Shown piece after piece: positions 8,944-23,007 of a DNA stretch of 33,285 nt. The notes under the pieces are model-generated. The model searched no databases. It was not told where the DNA came from and worked only from the letters and a program-made list of their open reading frames with translations. A program made the translations under genes and the position numbers. The stretch lies in the NCBI GenBank assembly GCA_029856105.1, contig JAHQWH010000107.1, positions 1 to 33,285 on the forward strand, read 5' to 3'. Origin of the DNA: Promethearchaeia archaeon. Its GTDB lineage: Archaea; Asgardarchaeota; Lokiarchaeia; Sigyniarchaeales; SOKP01. The stretch's first letter is position 1, and each line of letters opens with the position of its first letter.

Positions 8944-9825
8944 TTATTTTTCTAAAATCCCCGAAAAATAACCCACACAATATCCATATCCACCCTTAAT
9001 ATCGCTACTAGTATAATATTTTAATAATTTACCTTTTTTTCCGTTTAATTTTTCACAAATTAACATTAAAGTTGTTATTGTTTGGGCTCCGCATACGGTT
9101 GTTTTTGAAGCAGCTGAAAGAGTTTTTTTAGAATTAAATTCTACAAAAGCATCAATAACATCTTGATCAAATTTCTTAAACTCTTTTAATTGATTTGTAT
9201 TAAAAATTTCTTTATGTGACATATCAGACGATGCAATAATAACAACATCTTTATTTAACGTCTTAATTGCAGCAGAAATATCAGAAGCTATTTTTTCAAA
9301 TACGCTATAATCCCTTCTAATTCCTATTTTAAGCGTTACTATTTTTACGTCTTTATCTTTAGCACAATATTTAATGAAGGGTAATTGTATTTCAATATTG
9401 TGTTCTTGTTCCATGGAGCCGGTGAAGGCAGAAGGATCTTCTACAATAATTTCACTTGTATCTAAAATCTTTTTAGATAATTCATCGTCAATTTGTAAGT
9501 TTCCTAAAGGCGTTTCCCAGGCGCCATCTCCTAACAGAGCCACCTTTCCATAGCCAACATGATCAGTCCCTAATACGATTACTGTATCTGGGATTTTCTC
9601 TTTAAATAAATTCAAATACGTAAAGGCGGCACATCTTCCAGAAAAAGTATATCCCGCATGAGGAGATACCCCTCCAATTATAGTCCTACTGTCTTGATTT
9701 AGCGTTTCAGGTAGTTTACCAGGTCCAAACTCTTTATCGGAAAAAACATATTCTAGGTTTTTTATTAAATCTTCTTTTTTACCAGGGTACCAACTTCCCG
9801 CATGTGATGCTTTTCTTATAACCAA
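8944..9825 (-). CDS. MEMO1 family protein (AmmeMemoRadiSam system protein B), intact metal site
   Basis: Motifs RKASHAGSWYP, SPHAGY, GTDH, EHNIEIQLPF, ASSDMSH, TVCG, VGY. The start is more likely TTG at 9825 after AGGTGA than the track GTG at 9834. Confidence 0.92.
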   Translation of the reverse strand: MVIRKASHAGSWYPGKKEDLIKNLEYVFSDKEFGPGKLPETLNQDSRTIIGGVSPHAGYTFSGRCAAFTYLNLFKEKIPDTVIVLGTDHVGYGKVALLGDGAWETPLGNLQIDDELSKKILDTSEIIVEDPSAFTGSMEQEHNIEIQLPFIKYCAKDKDVKIVTLKIGIRRDYSVFEKIASDISAAIKTLNKDVVIIASSDMSHKEIFNTNQLKEFKKFDQDVIDAFVEFNSKKTLSAASKTTVCGAQTITTLMLICEKLNGKKGKLLKYYTSSDIKGGYGYCVGYFSGILEK

Positions 9826-9865
9826 TTTTATCACCTTCTTCTAATTAATTATTGTTGTTTTCCTA

Positions 9866-10774
9866 TTAAATATCTTTTATAATTATCCCCGAAAAATATG
9901 AAGCATTATATTTACAAGGACCAGTACCTCCACCTTTGTCATAACTAGTGTAATAATTTAATGCTCTATATTCGTTTGCACCCATCCTTTTACATATTAG
10001 CATTAATGTGGTAAGGATTTGTGGCTCTTTTATAGAAAATCTTGACGCGTCAAAAAAAGTCTTCTTTGGGTTAAATTCTGTAAACGATTTGATTACTGAT
10101 TTATCTGCTAAGAGCATTTCTTGCATTTCAAATTCAGCAGTAAATTCATCTTTGCAAATAATATGACTCATATCTGTAGAACCTATAAATACTATATCTT
10201 TGTTTAAGGATTGGACTGCTCTCGCGATATCTTCGGATAATTTATCTAATTTATCATAATCCATTATAGAAATAATAATTGGCAAGATTTTTATCTCTCT
10301 TTTTAACGCACAATATTTAATAAACGGCAATTGTACATCAATATAATATTCTCTTCCAAAGGGAAATCCAACAAAAGCAGAATCATCTCCTTTAACCATG
10401 CTACTCGTTTTTAGCAATTTTTGAGATAAATCGCTATCAACTTCTAGGTTACCTAACGGAGTTTCCCATTCGCCTACTTCTAGTAAAGCAATGTTGTTAT
10501 ATCCTAAATCTTCAGTGGCTAATATCACAACTGTATCCGGGATTTTTTCCTTAAACAAATGTAAATATGTATATGCCGCACAGCTACCAGAATAAGCGTA
10601 ACCCCCATGTGGAGATATTCCACCAAATATTGTTCTTGTTTTTTGGTTTAAAGAGTCGAATTTTTTACCTGGTCCAAATTCTTTATCTATAAAGGATTCA
10701 TCTATCATTTTAAATAAATCCGATTTGGATCGTGGATAATAAATTCCCGCGGCAGAAGATTCTCTTAATACCAA
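9866..10774 (-). CDS. MEMO1 family paralogue with degenerate metal-binding site
   Basis: Colinear with the neighbour (FGPGK, SPHGGY, LFKEKIPDTVVIL, WETPLGNL, QLPFIKYC, STDMSH), but GTDH>ATED, EHNIE>EYYID and TVCG>SIKE. Confidence 0.88.
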   Translation of the reverse strand: MVLRESSAAGIYYPRSKSDLFKMIDESFIDKEFGPGKKFDSLNQKTRTIFGGISPHGGYAYSGSCAAYTYLHLFKEKIPDTVVILATEDLGYNNIALLEVGEWETPLGNLEVDSDLSQKLLKTSSMVKGDDSAFVGFPFGREYYIDVQLPFIKYCALKREIKILPIIISIMDYDKLDKLSEDIARAVQSLNKDIVFIGSTDMSHIICKDEFTAEFEMQEMLLADKSVIKSFTEFNPKKTFFDASRFSIKEPQILTTLMLICKRMGANEYRALNYYTSYDKGGGTGPCKYNASYFSGIIIKDI

Positions 10775-11535: not shown

Positions 11536-13350
11536 TTACTGTCTTCGATGAACGTTAAAAACTAAACCTAAAGATTCATTATTAATTTTATCCCTTAGCT
11601 CTTCAATTTGTTCAAAGTTTTCATTAGGAACATAATGGCTAATTCTCATAACCTCATTGAGAACTTCATCACACTTCTTCTCATCAATTAGAAATCCTCG
11701 TTTAACGAGTGATTTACTTTTATTATATAATAAAAGTATTACTTTTACTAACCCTAGCAATTTTCCACTACTCGTATAACAATCTACTTTGTTGAAAGCA
11801 TTTTGAATTAACAATGCATTTCTTATTAGATTGGCTGTAAAGATTTCTAACCTTTGATCTTCAGCTAAATTTTTTAGCCCTAGTAGCTGGATAATATATT
11901 TCAACTCGTTTTCTTTTGCTAAAATCTCATTTACTTGTTTTCTACACTCAAACCAGTTTAAATTAATCTCGGGCCAAACAATATCTCTCTCGTCCCACCA
12001 TTCTGCTACATATTCAGGATAATTAGAGTATGAACTGATCCAACTAATTGCAGGATAATGTTTTAGATATGCTAGTTTAGGATCTAAAGCCCAAATCCCT
12101 TGAACAACACGTTTAGTAGCTGCGGTAACTGGTTCGCTAAAATCTCCAGCTGGTGGTGATATCGATCCTAAGATTGTTATGGATCCTTTTTTTTTTCCTA
12201 AAGTTGTAATAACGCCAGCTCGCTCAAAGAAACTTGATAATTTCGATGGTAAATAGGCGGGATAACCCTCTTCAGCAGGCATTTCCTCTAATAACCCTGA
12301 AATCTCTCTTAAGGATTCTGCCCATCTTGAAATACTATCTGCTACAACGGCAACATCATATCCCATATCTCTATAATATTCTGCTATTGTAATACCTGAA
12401 AAAAGACTTGCTTCACGAGCAGACACAGGCATATTTGAAGTATTGGCAATAAGAACAATATGTTCTAATAAAGGTTTTCCTGTTTTGGGATCAATAGTTT
12501 CCGTGAATTGTTTTAGAAAATTAGCAACTTCATTTCCAGGTTCTCCACAGCCTATAAAAACGCATATTTCTGCGTTACAAAATTTAGCAATATGTTGTGA
12601 GATAATTGTTTTACCAGTTCCAAAACCGCCCGGAACCGCAAAAGTACCACCTTTTGCTACGGGAAACAATAAATCTACAATACGCAAGCCAGTTAGTAAA
12701 GGTTCGTTAGGTTGATTTTTTTCACTATAAGGCTTTCTCTTTGTAACTGGCCATTTTTGTAACATACAAAAAGATTTATCTACATTCTCCTTTCTCAAGG
12801 TATATATTTCATCGACAATTGTATAATCACCTTCGTCAACAATAAACAATAAAACACCAGAATTTTCAGGAGGAACCATTATTTTATGTTCAAAAAAGGA
12901 TGTTTCTTGAACGGTCCCAATTTCATCTCCACTACTTAAAGAATCTTTTATTTTTTTCGATGGAATAAAATGCCATTTTTTTGTTCTTGATAAAGAGGGA
13001 AATTCGAGACCTCTTCCTAATCTTCCTTCTTTAAAGTGGCTGAAAGTAAGATCTAAAGGTCTCTGAATTCCATCAAAAACATTTGCTAACAAACCTGGTG
13101 CTAACTCCATAGATAATGGTTCGTTAAGATTAATTACTTTATCGTTCAATTTTATACTATTAGTACTTTCAAAAGATTGGGCTATTACACGATCCGAGTA
13201 GATTTGAATTACCTGACAAATAATGTTATAGTCACAAATCTTAATTAAATCATGAAGCCGAACCTGATTTTCTAATCCTTTAAACTCCACTAATGATCCA
13301 TTAACAGCAGAAATAAAACCCAAATTAGAATCATTTGTTTCTGTGACCAT
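11536..13350 (-). CDS. atpA: A/V-type ATPase subunit A, second divergent copy (GEPGNE variant)
   Basis: 604 aa. Walker [47 protein letters not shown] and HYPAI are present; the catalytic motif reads GCGEPGNE. Confidence 0.92.
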
Positions 13351-13392
13351 TTTTTACTTATCCTACCATGTAAGCTAACATTATGTTTTTTA

Positions 13393-13920
13393 TTATGTTG
13401 TTCGTTTTCCACAAATTGGACATATTTTCACAGACTTTGTAATTAGCATCCCACAATTTTTACATTTCTTAACAATTTCTTTCAGTTGAATTGTTTGACC
13501 ACATGTAGGACATTTTTTCCTATAGCCTGTTATGAGCATCCCACAATTTTCGCATTTATTGATAAGGGATTTGCGATACTTAAAGTTAAGATTAGCTTCT
13601 TTAAAATTTTTTTGAACCAGTTTCTCAGGTTCCGTTTCTATCTTTAATTCCAATTTTCGATGAAAATCTTGACTTCTTCTTTTTTTTTTATCAGGAAACA
13701 TTTCTGAATAAATTGAGCTTTGCTTTTTTTTAATAAAAAAGGACCCTACAAACAGCAATAACATGAATCCTAGTATTAAAATAATGAGAAGGGGATTTGT
13801 TCCAAATTCCATCAATATAAGATATAAAAAGATTAATATAATTAGATAAATAATCAAAAGTAACATTTTGAGAGAAAAAGTTTTCTTGGATGAGCTTTCT
13901 TTCGTGTTTTCGTTTTTCAT
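13393..13920 (-). CDS. Membrane protein with two N-terminal TM helices and two tandem zinc ribbons
   Basis: Two hydrophobic helices, then KCENCGMLITGYRKKCPTCGQ and KCKNCGMLITKSVKICPICGK. Confidence 0.85.
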   Translation of the reverse strand: MKNENTKESSSKKTFSLKMLLLIIYLIILIFLYLILMEFGTNPLLIILILGFMLLLFVGSFFIKKKQSSIYSEMFPDKKKRRSQDFHRKLELKIETEPEKLVQKNFKEANLNFKYRKSLINKCENCGMLITGYRKKCPTCGQTIQLKEIVKKCKNCGMLITKSVKICPICGKRTT

Positions 13921-13939: not shown

Positions 13940-16228
13940 TTATAAATATTTTTTAGAAATATATTGTTCTGCCTTAATTATATCCTCATGAGTTTTCTTT
14001 GATTCGATCTCTCTATCTATTTCTTCGGAAATAACATCTTTTATGGTGCTTATTTTAAAGGAAACAATAGAATATTTATCGTCTAAATAAAAAGGAATAT
14101 ATGTAACTCCGGTTCCTTGATAGAATTTGAAGAAAAATTCATAAAAATGGAGCCTAATGGCATTTATAAAAACAAGTAATCCTTCTAATAAAATAACAAC
14201 TATATTGCCAAAAATCAATCCTACAATATTTATTATCTCGTTAAAAATCCCCTCGCCTTGAATTAAATTCCCCATTGCTTGAATTGCGACCATTAAAGAG
14301 ATATGTGCTAAAGCTAACGCTAGTAATCTTATATAAGATGCTACATTGCTCATTATCGACAATAACGTTTCAAATGACTCCATTGTACCTTCCCCTATAA
14401 GCCCTCCAATTGTCTCTTCTTTCAAATAAGAAACATGGAAAATCTTGCCAAATGGTTTTAAGAGTATTAATAATATACCTGGGAGCAAGGGCAACAAAAT
14501 TGGGTAAGGAGGTGCTATCCATACATATATGTTAAAACCAAAAGTAAAAATTAAAATAGTTCCTCCAGTTAATAACCATATTTTAATTAATGAGTCAGTA
14601 AAACCTATATATTTTCTATGCTGTTTCCAATAATTCAAAAATTGTATAAACCAGCCCAAATTAATATGTACTACTCCAATTAATACAGCAAACTTAAAAA
14701 CGACCATAATATTATTTAACGGATTGTATAAAGTGATATTTATTATTGGAATGGTAACAGGTTCTAAGTGTAAAAAAACCGTTCCAAATAATTCAATGTC
14801 ATGCATCCCAAAAAATTCGCCATATAAAAAACCCACGAGTATAGAACCGATTCCACAATAAAAAATAATCCAGCAAAAATTTAAGAAATCTTTACTTTTT
14901 TTGTTCCTAAAGATAAATGCTCCAATCAAACCTGAGATAATTAATGTAATACCATGTCCTATATCCCCAAACATCAATCCAAACAAAAGTGGAAAAGTTA
15001 TTGCCAAAAACGGAGTGGGATCAATTTCTGAATAAGCAGGAACACCGTACATTTTAGTAATAGTTTCAAAGGGTCTCACAAAGAAATTATTCTTCATAAT
15101 TGTAGGAGCTGTATTTCTTAAATCCTTTTTATCTTCCTTGTTATTATTCGTCGGTTCTTCCTTTAATGAAGAATCCTTCCTTTTGGAATCTTGTGATTTC
15201 CCTGAATGTACATGGCTTATATCTTCTTTTAGGCTAACAGATTTATTTTTTGTAATAGCGATTGATTCAATTGTTATTTGATCTTGGAACTTTTCAATCA
15301 ACCCCTTTTGTATTTCTTGTTTTTTTTCTTGTGGAACAAAAAAACTCAAACTTAGTCGATTTAAAGATAAATCTTCGAATTGATGTGAAGCCCAGTTATA
15401 TTCTTCTATATTTTGCATGATCTCATTCGTAGCAGCAAATAGCAGTATGTTATCATCTCTTAATCGTTCTAATTCCTTTTGATATTTATTTAAAGACTTC
15501 ACAATAAACCTAATTTCATCTGCTATACGAGGAAAGTTTATCCCGTTTGAGAGCAAATATTTTTTAAGAATCGGTACTTCTTCGGCATGAATGATGCGTA
15601 TCCTCTCTCTAAATGCCTCTTCTTGTTCTTTTGGATAGATTACGAAAAAGGCAATTCTTTCATCGCTTAAAAAATCATACTGAAAAAAATTCGGAAAATG
15701 AGAAAATTCAAAAAGATTCTCTATATTTTCGAGGTTCTTTGAGAATGTTGTAAAGGCTTTAAATTCTAAACGATCAAATTTCGATAATTTATCTCGCGTT
15801 AGCTCATATTTTTCCAAAAAAATGTAACTTACATGAATCAAATTTATTTTATCCAATTCCACTTTGATAGTGATCATATATTTTTTTAACTCATTAACAC
15901 GGTTTGAATAGTAATTAATTTCACTCAATATTTGATTTAACAAATCGTTAAAATCCTTAACTTCAAATTCTTTTCTCTCTTCTTTTTCAAGTATTAATTT
16001 TTGGAAGTCAGATTCAGTAAGATTAAGGTTTTTGAATAAAGTTTCTAAATTTTGGCTTAATTTCTTAATTCTATCAAACAAAACTTTATCTTTTTCAATT
16101 ATGTCGCTTATTTCAGGTTTCGTTTTAATGTGAACTAGGTTAAGCTGGTATAGGTGTTGTAGTAGAAGATCCTTGTAATTATGATTAATATTTACCTTAA
16201 ATAATTCCATTGAGCTTTTTTTTGTCAT
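13940..16228 (-). CDS. atpI: A/V-type ATPase subunit I (a)
   Basis: PTIMKNN, YGVPAYSEIDPT, FGLMFGDIGHG, essential Arg in SYIRLLALALAH, and RLHFYEFF. ATG at 16228 follows GTGAGG (the track uses GTG 16246). Confidence 0.95.
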   Translation of the reverse strand: MTKKSSMELFKVNINHNYKDLLLQHLYQLNLVHIKTKPEISDIIEKDKVLFDRIKKLSQNLETLFKNLNLTESDFQKLILEKEERKEFEVKDFNDLLNQILSEINYYSNRVNELKKYMITIKVELDKINLIHVSYIFLEKYELTRDKLSKFDRLEFKAFTTFSKNLENIENLFEFSHFPNFFQYDFLSDERIAFFVIYPKEQEEAFRERIRIIHAEEVPILKKYLLSNGINFPRIADEIRFIVKSLNKYQKELERLRDDNILLFAATNEIMQNIEEYNWASHQFEDLSLNRLSLSFFVPQEKKQEIQKGLIEKFQDQITIESIAITKNKSVSLKEDISHVHSGKSQDSKRKDSSLKEEPTNNNKEDKKDLRNTAPTIMKNNFFVRPFETITKMYGVPAYSEIDPTPFLAITFPLLFGLMFGDIGHGITLIISGLIGAFIFRNKKSKDFLNFCWIIFYCGIGSILVGFLYGEFFGMHDIELFGTVFLHLEPVTIPIINITLYNPLNNIMVVFKFAVLIGVVHINLGWFIQFLNYWKQHRKYIGFTDSLIKIWLLTGGTILIFTFGFNIYVWIAPPYPILLPLLPGILLILLKPFGKIFHVSYLKEETIGGLIGEGTMESFETLLSIMSNVASYIRLLALALAHISLMVAIQAMGNLIQGEGIFNEIINIVGLIFGNIVVILLEGLLVFINAIRLHFYEFFFKFYQGTGVTYIPFYLDDKYSIVSFKISTIKDVISEEIDREIESKKTHEDIIKAEQYISKKYL

Positions 16229-16246
16229 TTTTTTTTCTTTCCTCAC

Positions 16247-16891: not shown

Positions 16892-18283
16892 TTACACCTC
16901 TTCAATATAATACTTATCAATAAAATCTTCCCGTATTCTAAATAATTGGTTTTTAGGCAAATTAGATAAAGCATGCCAAGCAATATTGAGAGTAGTTGAA
17001 AAATCCCTTTCTTCTGTGTAACCTTGATTTAAAAATTTTTGTTCGAAAAAGTTACCAAATCTTAATAACGATTTTTGATTTAAATTTAATCCATCTTCCC
17101 CTACAATCGACATAAGATCTCTAACTTCAAGGGCAGCTGAATACGATGCTAATAACTGAGAGTTAACATCAGCATGGTCTTCCCTAGTAGTATTTTTACC
17201 TATTGAATCTTTCATAAGTCGAGATATGGACGCTAAGACTTCAAAAGGGGGATATATTCCCTTTTTTTCCAAGTTTCGATTTAGAACTAATTGCCCTTCA
17301 GTTATGTAGCCCGTCGTATCCGGAATTGGATGAGATATGTCATCATTAGGCATCGTCAAAATCGGTAATTGGGTTATTGTTCCTTTTTTACCTTTAATTT
17401 TACCAGTTCTTTCATAAATAGATGCGAAATCAGTATATAAATAACCCGGATACCCTTTTCGGCTAGGAATCTCTTCTTTGGCGGAGCTTAGTTCTCTTAA
17501 AGCTTCAGCATAATTCGTCATGTCTAATAAAACAACGAGAACATGCATCTCTTTTTCAAATGCAAAATATTCCGCAGTAGTTAATGCTACTCGCGGAATT
17601 ATTAGTCTTTCCATTATTGGATCGTCGGCAAAATTGATAAAAGAAATGATATTTTGTATGTTTCCACTTTCTTTAAAACGATTCATAAAAAAAATCGCTT
17701 CATCTTGGATAATTCCAATTCCACAAAAAATTATTAAGAATGGTTCTTCTGTCAAAACCTTTGCTTGAGTAACAATTTGAGCAGCTAATAGATTATGGGG
17801 TAATCCTTGACCACTAAATATAGGAAGCTTTTGTCCTCTTATTAAGGTAAAAAGACCGTCTATTACCGATATTCCCGTTTGGATGACTTGCGTTGGATAC
17901 TCTCTTGCAAAAGGATTAATTGGTAAACCGTTTATATCTCGTTCAATTTCGGTAAAAATGTCTGAATCTAGCATTTGTTTCGTATTAATGTCAATAGGTT
18001 TTCCCATTGAGTTAAAAACCCTTCCAATCATATCGCTTGAAATTTTTATCTTAAAAGAATCTTCAGTAAAAGTAATTGTAGAATTTTCTGAAGAAATCCC
18101 AGCTGTATCTTCAAATACTTCAATTGTGATTATTTTTTCATCCATTTTTACGACTTGGCCTGTGCGTTCTTTTCCATCGTCAGAATGGATTTTAACGATT
18201 TCACCATATTGTACATCGTGTCTATTATCTATAATTATTAAAGGTCCAACAATTTGTTTTATTTTTCTATATATTACGCTCAT
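16892..18283 (-). CDS. atpB: A/V-type ATPase subunit B
   Basis: [46 protein letters not shown], and arginine finger SISRLM. Confidence 0.96.
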
Positions 18284-20121
18284 TTTTTCTTAAAAACCCC
18301 ATATGTTAATTTTAATGACTCTATTTCGTTTAGCATTTTCTTTCTTAATTTCTCTATTAGATCAAAGTTATTATTAGGAACAGAACGGCAAGTCCTAAGA
18401 ATATCATTTACAACATCGAGTTCTTTGATATCTTCAATTAGAAACTTTTGCTTTAGGAGTTGTTGACCCTCTTTAAATAGTAATAGAATGAGTTTTACTA
18501 GTCCAATTAATTTTTTAACATCTGTAAAACAATCTATTGAATCAAAGGCATTTTGAATTAGTAAACCATTTCTAATCAATTTTGAAATGAAAAGGATAAA
18601 TTGTTGATTTTCTGGTAAGTTTTCTTCACCAACTAATTGAGTGACATTTTTCAGCTCGTTTTCTTGAGATAGGATGCTATTTATTTGTTTCCTAGATTCG
18701 TACCAATCTATATCTATCTCAGGCCAATAAATATCTCTTTCAAACCACCAATCTGAGATGAATTCAGGATATTTTGAATATGAATTTAACCAATTAATCG
18801 CGGGATAATGTTTAGAATACGCTAAACTCGCATCTAATGCCCAAAAAGCTTGAACAAAACGCTTTGTGGTTGAAGTAACGGGCTCACTGAAATCTCCTGA
18901 AGGCGGTGAAACTGAACCAATAATTGTTAAAGACCCGTATTTCTCTTTTCCAGAATCGTTTTCACCCAATATCTTAACCACACCGGCTCTTTCATAAAAG
19001 CTAGAAATTTTAGATGGTAAATAAGCGGGATATCCTTCTTCAGCTGGCATTTCTTCTAATAATCCTGAGATTTCTCGTAAGGATTCTGCCCATCTTGAAG
19101 TACTATCCGCTAAAACTGCAACATCGTACCCCATATCTCTATAATATTCCCCAATTGTAACTCCAGAAAAAATACTTGCTTCTCGCGCAGATACGGGCAT
19201 ATTAGATGTATTAGCTATGATAACAATTCGTTCTAATAACGGACGCCCACTTTTTGGGTCTGTTATTTCAGAAAATTGTTTTAAGACATCTGCAATCTCG
19301 TTCCCACGCTCCCCGCATCCAACAAATATAATTACATCTGCGTTGCACCATTTTGCTAGAGACTGTTGGATTACCGTTTTACCCGTTCCAAAACCTCCAG
19401 GAACGGCAACTGTCCCGCCCTTTACTATTGGAAATAATAAATCGATTACCCTCATTCCCGTAATTAGTGGTTCATTAGGAAACCCTCGCTCTTGATATGG
19501 TCTATTTTTAGTAATTGGCCATTTTTGAATCATATTAAACGATTCTTCTTTGGAACCATTTTTCATGCGGTATAGTTCATCACTGACTGTATATTCTCCT
19601 TCTTCTGCAATATAAGTTATTTTTCCAGAAACACCTAATGGAATCATAATTTTATGTTCAATAATTACTGTTTCCTGAACGGTTCCAACGACATATCCCG
19701 TACTTACATAATCATTTATCTTTTTTGTTGGTTTAAAATGCCAAACTTTCGTTCTTGATAAAGCGGGTAAATCAACGCCCCTCTTTAAGAATCCTCCGCC
19801 TTTAGCATCCAAAAAGGTTGCTTCCAATGGCCTTTGAATACCATCAAAGATATTTCCTAATAAACCTGGACCTAATTCCATTGATAAGGGTTCTTGTAAA
19901 CTAATAATTTCTTCATTTAACTTTAAATTAGAAGTATTTTCAAAACATTGAGCAGTAACATGATCTGAATAAATTTGGATTACTTCACCTAAAATTTTAT
20001 GTTTAGACTCCTTAATTAAATCGTTTAAGCGCACATAGTTCTCCAAGCCTTTTATTTCTATTAAGGATCCGTTTATAGATGAAATATATCCGGACTTAAT
20101 TTTTTCGTTAGTTTCATTCAT
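18280..20121 (-). CDS. atpA: A/V-type ATPase subunit A (canonical catalytic copy)
   Basis: [25 protein letters not shown] and [12 protein letters not shown]; ATGA overlap with subunit B; no intein. Confidence 0.97.
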
Positions 20122-20818
20122 ATTTCTTTAAATATTCGTTTACAGCTAATTTTTGATTTTGGATAAATTGTATATAATTATTTTCTAGAGCTCTAATATC
20201 AGGCTCGGAGTCAGAAAAAATCTTTGAAAACTCAATTTCTATAATCGATACGCTCTTTTTTAATTGATTGTCAATCGTATGATCGTAAGATAAATGTCCG
20301 GCCATAATTACACACTTAAAACCTCCAGTAATCTCTTCTTTTGACCTGATTAATCTTACTTTATTTTTTAATATACTTTCAATCTTTCCCAGATTATTGC
20401 TAAAATATTTGAAATCTATTGAATTTAAGTGAATGATAATCTCTGGTGGTTTATCCACAAAATGTTTTATATTTTCAAGATTTTTTAGTAAAAGGCTAAT
20501 GTAGCTCGAATAATTATTTTTTATTTTGTCTTTTATTAAGTCTGTTAAATCTGAAATAAGTTCTAACATTAACTTGTTTTTTGATTTCAGCACTTCTTCT
20601 TTAATTTTCAAGAGATAAGAAGATAGAGAATTATTTAATAGTTTATTGTATGTTTCGTTAAAATGCGCTTTCATTTTTAAAGAGCTTTCTGAAGTTCTTT
20701 CCCTAGCTTTTTTTCTAACTTCTGCCATTTGAAAGAGGGATTGTTGATTGATCTTCTTTATCTCATTTTCAGCTTGATTTATTAAATACAAACTTAGTTT
20801 TCCAAATCTCTCTTTCAT
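20114..20818 (-). CDS. atpE: A/V-type ATPase subunit E
   Basis: N-terminal coiled coil, C-terminal ITGGF...YDHTID motif, and operon position. Confidence 0.85.
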   Translation of the reverse strand: MKERFGKLSLYLINQAENEIKKINQQSLFQMAEVRKKARERTSESSLKMKAHFNETYNKLLNNSLSSYLLKIKEEVLKSKNKLMLELISDLTDLIKDKIKNNYSSYISLLLKNLENIKHFVDKPPEIIIHLNSIDFKYFSNNLGKIESILKNKVRLIRSKEEITGGFKCVIMAGHLSYDHTIDNQLKKSVSIIEIEFSKIFSDSEPDIRALENNYIQFIQNQKLAVNEYLKKYE

Positions 20819-20852: not shown

Positions 20853-21170
20853 TTATATAATTTCTTCTATTAATTCGTGAATTTTGTTGAAAATCTTATC
20901 TTGATTCTTTATATCTTGTTGAAAAATATCTGGTAATAAATATACAAATGGCGTCCTATTATTTATTTTAAAATCTGTTAGAAATTCGAGAATTTCGTCT
21001 GTCATATCTATGTATATAATTATCATAGCAACAGAAGTTTTTTTTATTAAATTTTTAAAAATTTTTAAAAAATCTTCATTATGTTCAATTATCGTTCCAT
21101 CGATTCCTAATAAACCAAACATTAAGACTATTTCGTCGTAGCCTAATACATGTATTTTTTTATCCGGCAT
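20853..21170 (-). CDS. atpF: A/V-type ATPase subunit F
   Basis: KIHVLGYDEIVLMFGLLGIDG...PFVYLLPD pattern, 105 aa. Confidence 0.88.
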   Translation of the reverse strand: MPDKKIHVLGYDEIVLMFGLLGIDGTIIEHNEDFLKIFKNLIKKTSVAMIIIYIDMTDEILEFLTDFKINNRTPFVYLLPDIFQQDIKNQDKIFNKIHELIEEII

Positions 21171-21487
21171 TAAAAATCAAATCCTAATTTCTCAAATATT
21201 AAAATCATTAGTTCTTCCTTATTTTCATAAAAATTTTTTTCTATATTGCTACATAATTTAGATATTGACTCTCCAAATTTTGACGATTTTTCATTAACTT
21301 CTTTTGAAAGTGTTGCTAAGGCAGAATTAATAATCTCCTGATTGTGATGATTTTTTTTTTCTACATCTTTTTCTATTGAAGCCTTTAATTTCTCAATGTC
21401 ATCTAAACTTTCTTTTTTAGCGTTTTCAATCAAATTTTCGTAAATTTCTTCGATTTCTTCAACCCATTTAAAAATTGGCATTATCAC
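21170..21487 (-). CDS. A/V-type ATPase peripheral stalk subunit G/H
   Basis: About 105-aa charged coiled coil (EEIEEIYENLIENAKKES) between C and F; assigned by size, composition and position. Confidence 0.65.
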   Translation of the reverse strand: MIMPIFKWVEEIEEIYENLIENAKKESLDDIEKLKASIEKDVEKKNHHNQEIINSALATLSKEVNEKSSKFGESISKLCSNIEKNFYENKEELMILIFEKLGFDF

Positions 21488-21533: not shown

Positions 21534-22595
21534 TTAAAATTTCTGCGTTTTTAATGCTTTAAACTTATAGTGAAGGATTTTAATTACTTTTGGCAAAATA
21601 TCGAATTTTATTTCTTTTTCTTTTTTTATAAGTATTTCTAAAATTTTGTAAATAGTGAAAAAATCAATGTCGTCAATTTTAATTTCAAAATTCTTAAAAT
21701 AATAAGTTATATAGAATTGTTCAATTGATCTAATTAAGTGTTTTTGATCAATTCTTAGCTTGATAAAAAATGGTTTTATTTCCTTAATATTCTTCAAATA
21801 TTCTTCTATAACTGATATAAATTCATCAAGATTATCAAGATTTAACAAACGATCTAATTTACTTTCATTTAGGAATAAATAATTATTTACAAGAAATTGA
21901 GATAATAATTTTCGATCAATATTATTTTTTATTCCCCTGTAAATCACATTTATATTATAAATTTCAGTTTTATATCTCACAAACAATGAGATCATTGTTT
22001 TTTCTTTTTTATTTAAATTTTCCAGTTGTACATTAAGTTGCTTATAATATAATTGATCTAAAAAAGCTTCCAGGATAAAAATTTCTTTATTTTTCTTAAA
22101 GTAAAGAATCCCTTCTCTAGTAGCAATATTATATTTAGTTCTTTTTAAAAATAATTGTATTTCATCTAAAGAAGTAAATTTAAGCAATTCTTCTATGAAT
22201 TCCGTGTTATCTAAATATTCTTCAACTAAAAAATTAATGTATTTTCTTCTTTCTTCTTGATTAATTCCTAAAATTAAACTAATGATTATTTGTTTGAGAT
22301 TTTGTATTTCAAATTTCATGAGATAATTTCTTAAAAATATTCTCATGTTTTGGGGTGAATAATGTAAAATTTTACCAATTAGCTTAATATAATTATTATT
22401 AAGAGCTACTTCAATGTCTTCAATGGTGTTTTCTTTAAAATCTAAATTAGGATAATAAGGTCTAATAGATTCCATGAAATCATCAATATCGTCGATCTTT
22501 TTAAGTTTTAGTATAGTATCATCATCAATTATTAATGGTTTTAAATAATCGATTTTAATATATGTATAAGCATAAGACGGAATAATTTCACTCGT
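21534..22595 (-). CDS. atpC: A/V-type ATPase subunit C (d)
   Basis: FEIQNLKQII, LEAFLDQLYY and EIYNINVIYRG. The frame extends 40 codons above the track ATG (22475) through the typical N-terminal SYAYTYIKI to ACG at 22595, which is preceded by AAGGTG. Confidence 0.88.
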   Translation of the reverse strand, partial: TSEIIPSYAYTYIKIDYLKPLIIDDDTILKLKKIDDIDDFMESIRPYYPNLDFKENTIEDIEVALNNNYIKLIGKILHYSPQNMRIFLRNYLMKFEIQNLKQIIISLILGINQEERRKYINFLVEEYLDNTEFIEELLKFTSLDEIQLFLKRTKYNIATREGILYFKKNKEIFILEAFLDQLYYKQLNVQLENLNKKEKTMISLFVRYKTEIYNINVIYRGIKNNIDRKLLSQFLVNNYLFLNESKLDRLLNLDNLDEFISVIEEYLKNIKEIKPFFIKLRIDQKHLIRSIEQFYITYYFKNFEIKIDDIDFFTIYKILEILIKKEKEIKFDILPKVIKILHYKFKALKTQKF

Positions 22596-22635: not shown

Positions 22636-23007
22636 TTATGCTGGCGTAGGAATTTTTGTCCACAAAAGGATCGCTACAATTAAACCGTATACTGCTAATG
22701 CCTCACATAAAGCAACGACTAAAAATGATTTAAAGAAACTTTCTTCTCTTTCGGATAAAGAGGAGATTGCTGCTGTACCTACTGTTTTTAAAGCGATTGC
22801 ACTTCCTAATACTGATGCTGAAAGGGAGATTGCTGCTGAAATCGCTAAAATCGCCGCTGTTGGAGAATTATAGTAATCAAAACTCTCTGTTTGTGCTGCA
22901 ACCATAGTGATAATTCCATCTACACTAAAAAACACAATTAATATAAGCACTAATTGGAAAAATCCTAACAATGAATAAAATTTCATTTTTCCGTTCATAG
23001 TATTCAC
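22636..23007 (-). CDS. atpK: A/V-type ATPase proteolipid subunit K (c), single hairpin with an extra N-terminal hydrophobic segment
   Basis: VGTAAISSLSEREESFFKSFLVVALCEALAVYGLIVAILL with the ion-binding Glu. Exact start is uncertain (GTG or later ATGs). Confidence 0.92.
   Translation of the reverse strand: MNTMNGKMKFYSLLGFFQLVLILIVFFSVDGIITMVAAQTESFDYYNSPTAAILAISAAISLSASVLGSAIALKTVGTAAISSLSEREESFFKSFLVVALCEALAVYGLIVAILLWTKIPTPA

Follow-up and report, generated by a model that had tools for sequence, protein, structure and literature searches.

Why would the operon of a rotary ATPase, an enzyme whose head is thought to be fixed, with three copies each of one catalytic and one non-catalytic subunit, end with a second gene for the catalytic subunit A in which an arginine of the nucleotide site has become proline? 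This question is raised by a 33,285-nucleotide (nt) stretch of a Promethearchaeia archaeon (GenBank assembly GCA_029856105.1, contig JAHQWH010000107.1, positions 1 to 33,285), which we call the window; the product of the second gene is referred to as A'. It is near certain that A' is a real, selected paralogue of subunit A that lacks this arginine, and we consider it probable that A' is a selectively maintained, pseudo-catalytic paralogue acting as a catalysis-impaired subunit of the ATPase head. The genes and residues on which this view depends are as follows.

11536 to 13350, minus strand: A' gene, second A/V-ATPase subunit A; uninterrupted open reading frame (ORF) of 604 amino acids (aa), terminal gene of the operon
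18280 to 20121, minus strand: canonical catalytic subunit A, 613 aa, with GCGERGNE
19306 to 19308, minus strand: CGT, the arginine of the first A in GCGERGNE
12538 to 12540, minus strand: CCT, Pro271 of A' in GCGEPGNE, replacing the phosphate-binding arginine
12607 to 12630, minus strand: intact Walker A motif or P-loop GGFGTGKT, residues 241-248 of A'
12520 to 12522, minus strand: Asn277 of A' (Asp278 in A), six residues past the lost arginine and in the same 'arm' helix
12403 to 12405, minus strand: Leu316 of A' (Ile317 in A), in REAS(I/L)FSG
12064 to 12066, minus strand: Leu429 of A' (Ser436 in A), in LAY(S/L)KHYPAI
11860 to 11880, minus strand: DELSEED-like rotor-contact loop of A', GLKNLAE (GEENLPE in A), with the acidic pair lost and a lysine gained

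The original prediction, made from the letters of this stretch, described a full-length, uninterrupted A paralogue at the end of the operon, and this is what we find. The 604-residue reading frame covers all four parts of the A-subunit architecture that was tested (N-terminal beta-barrel, A-specific bulge, alpha/beta nucleotide domain and V/A-type C-terminal domain), and the Pfam domains PF02874, PF16886, PF00006 and PF22919 all score over their cut-offs. A' and the first A of the operon share 61% identity, the alignment of A' to the A subunit of Pyrococcus horikoshii spans the full length, and the full-length matches of A' to known A/V-ATPase A subunits (AtpA/NtpA; P. horikoshii 3M4Y/1VDZ, Thermus thermophilus 3A5C, Enterococcus hirae 3VR2-3VR6) have E values of 1e-151 to 1e-167. 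It shares with these proteins the four domains, the P-loop, the catalytic glutamate, Walker B, the bulge, the operon location and the NCBIfam subfamily NF003220 (701 bits, cut-off 470); both copies fall below the cut-off of 972 for the equivalog TIGR01043, A' at 691 and the canonical operon A at 746. Because A' passes the subfamily cut-off and is automatically annotated as 'V-type ATP synthase subunit A', it is invisible in annotations and can distort analyses of Asgard ATPase copy number and phylogeny. Unlike A/V-ATPase A subunits, A' has proline for the arginine that follows the catalytic glutamate (R264 in P. horikoshii by alignment count, R262 in E. hirae), carries the substitutions I317L, S436L and D278N together with a basic DELSEED-like loop, and has no B partner of its own. 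Identity to subunit B is 31% over the nucleotide domain, and A' does not group with B or the F-type alpha subunit.

The proline codon and the arginine codon are those originally read, and they differ by a single base. As was also claimed, the Walker A motif and the catalytic glutamate are kept: the P-loop is 100% conserved in the A' clade, bar T to S in a few members, the catalytic glutamate (E270) and the Walker B aspartate (D338) are invariant across it, SPPxGDFSEPV is retained, and the P-loop, both of these acidic residues and the GCGE-GNE neighbours of the proline are together 98-100% conserved. All the elements required for an A-like fold and for binding Mg-nucleotide are therefore present. 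Nothing obvious replaces the lost guanidinium, because no A'-specific conserved gain of lysine or arginine was found in the nucleotide-domain core of A', and B is common to A and A'. A' therefore fails one defining feature of A subunits, the arginine after the catalytic glutamate, and is best called a pseudo-catalytic A paralogue; as expected of a pseudoenzyme, the A' clade has lost an essential residue and kept purifying selection.

The expected effect of this loss can be gauged from characterised enzymes. In E. hirae, A-Arg262 contacts the gamma-phosphate along with the P-loop lysine and the arginine finger of the B subunit (PMC5095293). In Escherichia coli F1, beta-Arg-182 is required at every stage; beta-R182Q/K enzymes do not synthesise ATP, have low ATPase activity and have lost binding of inorganic phosphate (Pi), beta-R182Q also abolishes the transition state, and MgADP binding is independent of beta-Arg-182 (PMC3268026). 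These substitutions affect the same residue position as the A' proline, although they are laboratory mutants whereas A' is a natural, family-wide gene. By analogy, we infer that A' would bind nucleotide, would be unable to bind Pi and would turn over negligibly. The part of the original prediction that proposed a hydrolysis-impaired A' fits both data sets to this extent, with the phosphate-binding arginine lost.

The proline is a fixed property of a clade. We sampled homologues as the best 120 database matches to A' in a collection of 5.8 billion proteins; GCGEPGNE is present in 91 of these, and three more have proline in an altered context (GEPGSE, ACGEPGNE and GEPDNE). All 68 proline-bearing proteins form one group with 98 SH-like (Shimodaira-Hasegawa-like) support in a tree of 105 non-redundant sequences, with proline in 68/68 members of this A' clade and arginine in 34/34 A sequences of the same family, so that orthologues of the second copy keep proline and have not retained arginine. 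The codon differs by species, with CCT, CCA, CCG and CCC all in use, and selection therefore acts on the amino acid. When searched for as a degenerate DNA pattern, CGEPGNE is matched in 79 of the family's 134 other genomes, always once and across seven genera, and in no ATPase gene among 266 genomes of other families in the phylum; the lone out-of-family match (G324) sits in a non-ATPase ORF and was ruled out as an A' gene, being a chance occurrence. Across GTDB species genomes nearly all of the matches listed are likewise chance occurrences in unrelated bacteria, and among these matches only the Promethearchaeota loci are ATPase genes (tblastn).

The gene is also constrained. Ratios of nonsynonymous to synonymous divergence (dN/dS; Nei-Gojobori, seven species pairs) are 0.03-0.07 for B and 0.06-0.15 for A; the second copy, at 0.08-0.15, is thus under purifying selection equal to that on A and is not evolving neutrally. 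For 40 sequences taken from genomes with both copies known, a mixture-model tree was used to test a single origin. The topology uniting all 19 A' sequences beats the free search by 2.57 log-likelihood units (p-AU, from the approximately unbiased test, 0.525), and because it is likelier than the free tree a single origin of A' is the best-fitting history. As a separate observation on these genes, the loci L037 (G015) and L038 (G014) have a synonymous divergence of 0.05 for A, 0.075 for B and 0.31 for A'; the parts of this operon do not share one history, a sign of recombination.

Just a handful of alignment columns set the A and A' clades apart (numbered here on the canonical A of the window). 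Column 272 is arginine in 100% of A and proline in 100% of A'; column 317 is isoleucine in 100% of A and leucine in 98-99% of A'; column 436 is serine in 94% of A and leucine in 100% of 68 A' sequences, with a lone glutamine in G213; and column 278 is aspartate in 100% of A and asparagine in 82% of A', with the A' of genus g12 keeping aspartate. The equivalent of D278 lies within the E. hirae 'arm', residues 261-275 (PMC5095293), and D278N co-varies with the loss of the arginine in this helix. The rotor-facing loop reads GEENLPE in A, its two acidic positions being glutamate in 97% and 100%, and G-x-K-N-L-(P/A)-E in A', where the second acidic position is lysine or arginine in 88%; our own alignment suggests that this loop corresponds to DELSEED of F1 beta. 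The signature of the A' clade is thus R272P, I317L and S436L, mostly with D278N, and with the acidic pair of the DELSEED-like loop lost. Other differences that had been listed for the window, namely DSISR, SQHIAKF and a shorter loop (a six-residue deletion relative to ENDSGKEKY), are real in this lineage but vary within the A' clade and do not define it.

Rates of divergence differ between domains. When A and A' are taken from one set of 15 genomes, so that phylogeny is controlled for, the A'/A divergence ratio is 1.06 for the N-terminal crown and 0.94 for the bulge, against 1.50 for the nucleotide domain and 1.31 for the C-terminal domain. The largest excess of A' over A is just past the P-loop (0.09 in A and 0.23 in A') and around the rotor loop (0.26 and 0.51). 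This pattern is as expected for a protein that would keep its fit to the hexamer and stalks while being partly freed from catalytic and torque-transmission duty.

The setting of the gene suggests where such a protein might act. The operon of the window runs, on the minus strand, in the order c, C, 105-aa stalk-like protein, F, E, A, B, D, I, zinc-ribbon protein and A', and its remaining components are listed here.

22636 to 23007, minus strand: c proteolipid
21534 to 22475, minus strand: subunit C/d
21170 to 21487, minus strand: stalk-like protein of 105 aa
20853 to 21170, minus strand: subunit F
20114 to 20818, minus strand: subunit E
16892 to 18283, minus strand: subunit B (Pfam), the sole non-catalytic head subunit of the genome
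16247 to 16846, minus strand: subunit D, central shaft (PF01813)
13940 to 16246, minus strand: subunit I (a), stator and ion channel (PF01496)
13393 to 13920, minus strand: membrane double zinc-ribbon protein between I and A' (Pfam zinc-ribbon families)
13351 to 13392, minus strand: 42-nt AT-rich spacer before A', with the Shine-Dalgarno-like sequence GGTAGGA

The genome to which the window belongs (3.66 Mb, 92% complete) has only two A genes and one B gene, with just one set of B, D and F. That A' belongs to the head is suggested by this single B, D and F set, by its place in the operon, and by a crown and bulge constrained as in A. When B(1-390) and A' were co-folded the interface score (ipSAE) was 0.57, compared with 0.00 for three controls; solved A-B complexes exist, and the score may reflect likeness to these rather than binding. 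Contacts agree between the co-fold runs to 94% or more, and the predicted local distance difference test score (pLDDT) of the partner is 84 or higher. In calibration the mark is reached by 58/80 solved complexes and 2/110 mismatched pairs, and passes at 0.60 or less comprise seven of the 80 solved complexes and both passing mismatches; the co-fold is rated as weak support. To judge from sequence, entry of A' into the A3B3 head and a role there as a brake are plausible.

The same arrangement extends to relatives. The whole operon order of the window is found in 20 or more related genomes; the order ...A-B-D-I-Zn-A' (Zn being the zinc-ribbon gene) is present in genera g1, g12, g21 and g22, and A' is terminal in 20 or more genomes. 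In 12 orthologous operons the spacer before A' is 35-50 nt, and several have TATA-like runs. Both copies of the window carry the WW(D/F)ERDI(V/Y)WPEI(N/D) insertion, as does the A of families f1 and f4. It is missing in the A of the sister family f2, which includes single-contig genomes without A'; the duplication therefore occurred within this ATPase lineage, after the split from the f2 type, and the lineage-level duplication originally proposed from this segment is borne out. In genus g12 (L177 = G175; L185 = G174) the two copies within a genome share 81% identity across the first 500 columns, covering the N-terminal and nucleotide domains, and are closer to each other than either is to its orthologues elsewhere. 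An independent duplication in g12 was considered and rejected, as the A' there still carries P272, L317, L436 and K500 and a single A' clade is not rejected; the sequences fit gene conversion with selection preserving the signature residues.

Within the genus of the window A' is not universal. In G020 and G003 the I and zinc-ribbon genes are followed directly by the next conserved gene, with no A', and five more same-genus genomes that are at least 92% complete have one A-like gene only. Since these same-genus genomes are without A', and G020 is the sister of the A'-bearing G018 in the A tree, A' has been lost repeatedly and is accessory. One further genome placed in the same genus has a single A that is 48% identical to A' (G008:C24:190858-192465), and its ATPase appears to be of another type or to have been replaced.

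These observations suggest the following course of events. A' would have arisen once, inside one Lokiarchaeial family, and would fold like A, binding MgADP and, more weakly, MgATP. Its site, lacking the arginine, would neither bind Pi nor stabilise the transition state, and so would support no synthesis and no useful hydrolysis. Paired with the single B, A' would substitute for at least one A subunit in the A3B3 head of the only rotary ATPase, where a dead or very slow site would stall ATP-driven rotation once per turn and act as a brake on wasteful hydrolysis, while ion-driven rotation could still pass through; the basic rotor-facing loop would change the contact with the shaft subunit D. As some species lost the gene, A' would be an accessory modulator and not a core part.

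A more specific version of this proposal, which we regard as speculative and rather unlikely, is that A' serves as both a gear-shift and a one-way valve. With one A' per head (A2A'B3), two rather than three ATP would be made per rotor turn, and reverse, ATP-driven rotation would be stalled once per turn. If this were true the ion/ATP ratio would rise by half, allowing ATP synthesis at a much lower ion-motive force in energy-starved syntrophic archaea, and the stoichiometry of a rotary ATPase would be tuned at the head instead of the c-ring, a new mode. Rotary ATPases are regulated by small inhibitors, MgADP inhibition, disassembly and c-ring size, and a third type of head subunit, in which a single site is precisely disabled, would add a new principle of regulation. 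It would also open a testable way of asking how organisms living at the thermodynamic limit tune the ATP made per ion or avoid wasting ATP.

Several findings weigh against A' as a catalysis-impaired head subunit. The ATPase works without A' in at least seven well-assembled genomes of the genus from which the gene is missing. In genus g17 A' is a stand-alone gene on another contig and has diverged further, reading CCGEPGNE and having GKS in its P-loop (L178 = G191:C8; L183 = G190:C35). On the closed 3.34-Mb contig of G217 (C1, 2194014-2195831 and 3056003-3057787) the operon is split, I-Zn-A' lying 860 kb away from the A gene, so that A' is linked to I and the zinc-ribbon gene and not to A, B and D. 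An AlphaFold2 model of A' from a 29-row alignment has a mean pLDDT of 60 and a predicted template modelling score (pTM) of 0.34, which is too poor for placing the substitutions. Catalysis itself may not be wholly gone, as alanine substitution of other key catalytic residues slows the rotation of F1 10^3-10^4 times without stopping it (PMC5380711), and 'very slow' is therefore a safer description of A' than 'dead'; moreover a purely structural subunit would not need the catalytic glutamate, and its 100% conservation suggests that residual or altered chemistry may matter.

An alternative explanation is that A' forms whole heads of its own, with A'3B3 set on the same stalks and membrane sector to give inert parked complexes (during starvation, for example) or plugs for the ion channel. 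A-type subunits never touch each other in the alternating ring, and mixed and all-A' heads are therefore not separable by sequence; nothing in the sequences forces mixing. A crown and bulge constrained like those of A would suit such a head, and the gene's own AT-rich spacer, the TATA-like runs in several species and the separate transcription unit in g17 would permit condition-specific expression. We nevertheless think whole A' heads unlikely, as in most genomes a gap of 35-50 nt separates A' from the gene before it in the operon, a spacing that speaks for its co-expression with A, and no regulator is linked to it. We also doubt that A' is still an enzyme, a view in which the proline reshapes the loop to give altered chemistry or affinity, for instance hydrolysis slow enough to act as a timer, or a nucleotide-sensing role by which A' sets the state of the complex. 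The invariance of the catalytic glutamate, the P-loop lysine and threonine and the Walker B aspartate in 68 diverged sequences goes beyond what nucleotide binding needs, and F1 mutants without key catalytic residues do turn over slowly (PMC5380711). Yet beta-R182Q abolishes transition-state formation as well as Pi binding (PMC3268026), A' has no compensating basic residue while its B is common to A, and its nucleotide domain is relaxed 1.5-fold, so that we give a retained enzymatic role little credence.

It is more doubtful again that A' acts outside the rotary ATPase, either as a free nucleotide-binding protein or as the partner of another protein such as the neighbouring zinc-ribbon membrane protein. 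Its stand-alone position in g17, its repeated loss without loss of the operon and its conserved adjacency to the zinc-ribbon gene could all be read in this way, but the zinc-ribbon gene is no less a part of operons that lack A' and also occurs in family f2, and A' has kept the full A architecture, with a crown and bulge that are meaningful only in a hexamer with stalks constrained as in A; we consider such a role very improbable. A sequencing or assembly error, or a decaying duplicate, has in its favour that one base separates CGT from CCT; it is in effect refuted by proline being invariant in some 70 orthologues from many independent assemblies and written with four codons, and by intact ORFs with dN/dS near 0.1. 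The proline is thus not a read error, and a catalysis-impaired subunit of the head is the interpretation that we prefer.

Comparison with known systems places A' in context. The original prediction saw in it a replay of the ancient duplication that gave catalytic and non-catalytic subunits. The V/A-type B and F-type alpha subunits are indeed old duplicates of the catalytic subunit within the same hexamer, nucleotide-binding and non-catalytic, but the likeness is a functional analogy only: B and alpha lack the catalytic glutamate and B also lacks a canonical P-loop, whereas A' keeps both, and they alternate with the catalytic subunit whereas A' would occupy an A position. A' may share a role with IF1, bacterial epsilon, alphaproteobacterial zeta and MgADP inhibition in limiting hydrolysis more than synthesis, although the first three are small inhibitors and the last is a kinetic state, while A' is a substituted catalytic subunit. 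In the hybrid F1 of Ariga et al. 2007, one slow beta reportedly gives one long pause per turn, and A' would be the natural counterpart of such hybrid-motor experiments.

Degenerate A-like proteins also occur elsewhere. The E-R pair is present in 127 of 146 covered A-family clusters (50%-identity representatives) and is lacking in 19; survey entries with degenerate loops include P0228, P0254, P0227 and P0207. Among such proteins are Paramecium tetraurelia XP_001447142.1 (GCAESGNE), MBP1737147.1 from an Oscillospiraceae metagenome-assembled genome (ACGGRSGG) and amoebozoan A-like transcripts (WIGEQSTN and GSGDRSME). They are 33-41% identical to A', come from unrelated lineages and have mostly lost the glutamate rather than the arginine, and for the ten whose 90%-identity clusters we retrieved, the cluster has just one or two members. 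Pseudo-A proteins may thus form a broader phenomenon that is still unstudied, with none of these related to the A' clade. We found no description of A' in the literature on Asgard or Lokiarchaeota ATPases, on A-subunit paralogues or on ATPase evolution. A metagenome-assembled genome of Loki with 'both an A-type and a V-type ATPase' has been described (PMC7997004), and this pair might be an echo or best-hit artefact of A and A'.

Other features of the operon and its surroundings deserve mention. The zinc-ribbon gene follows subunit I in every family f1 operon examined, with or without A', and in family f2 its homologue lies after I in G032 and upstream of c in G030. The protein is a conserved, unassigned operon member independent of A', and its presence in operons without A' rules it out as an A'-specific partner. 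Among close relatives the longest ATG/GTG/TTG ORF for subunit C (21534-22475, minus strand) has anything from 268 to 381 aa, which leaves the true start uncertain; an ACG start, proposed in the first reading, is a candidate. The c subunit (22636-23007, minus strand) is a single hairpin with one carboxylate (ALCEALAVYG) and an extra N-terminal hydrophobic segment ahead of it, and one site per hairpin would be compatible with an ATP-synthesising enzyme. Downstream of the operon, at 8944-10774 on the minus strand, are two tandem paralogous genes of about 300 aa each, which the first reading labelled, as a label only, a MEMO1 enzyme/pseudo-enzyme pair; both copies are present in some relatives (G017, G023) and a single copy in most.

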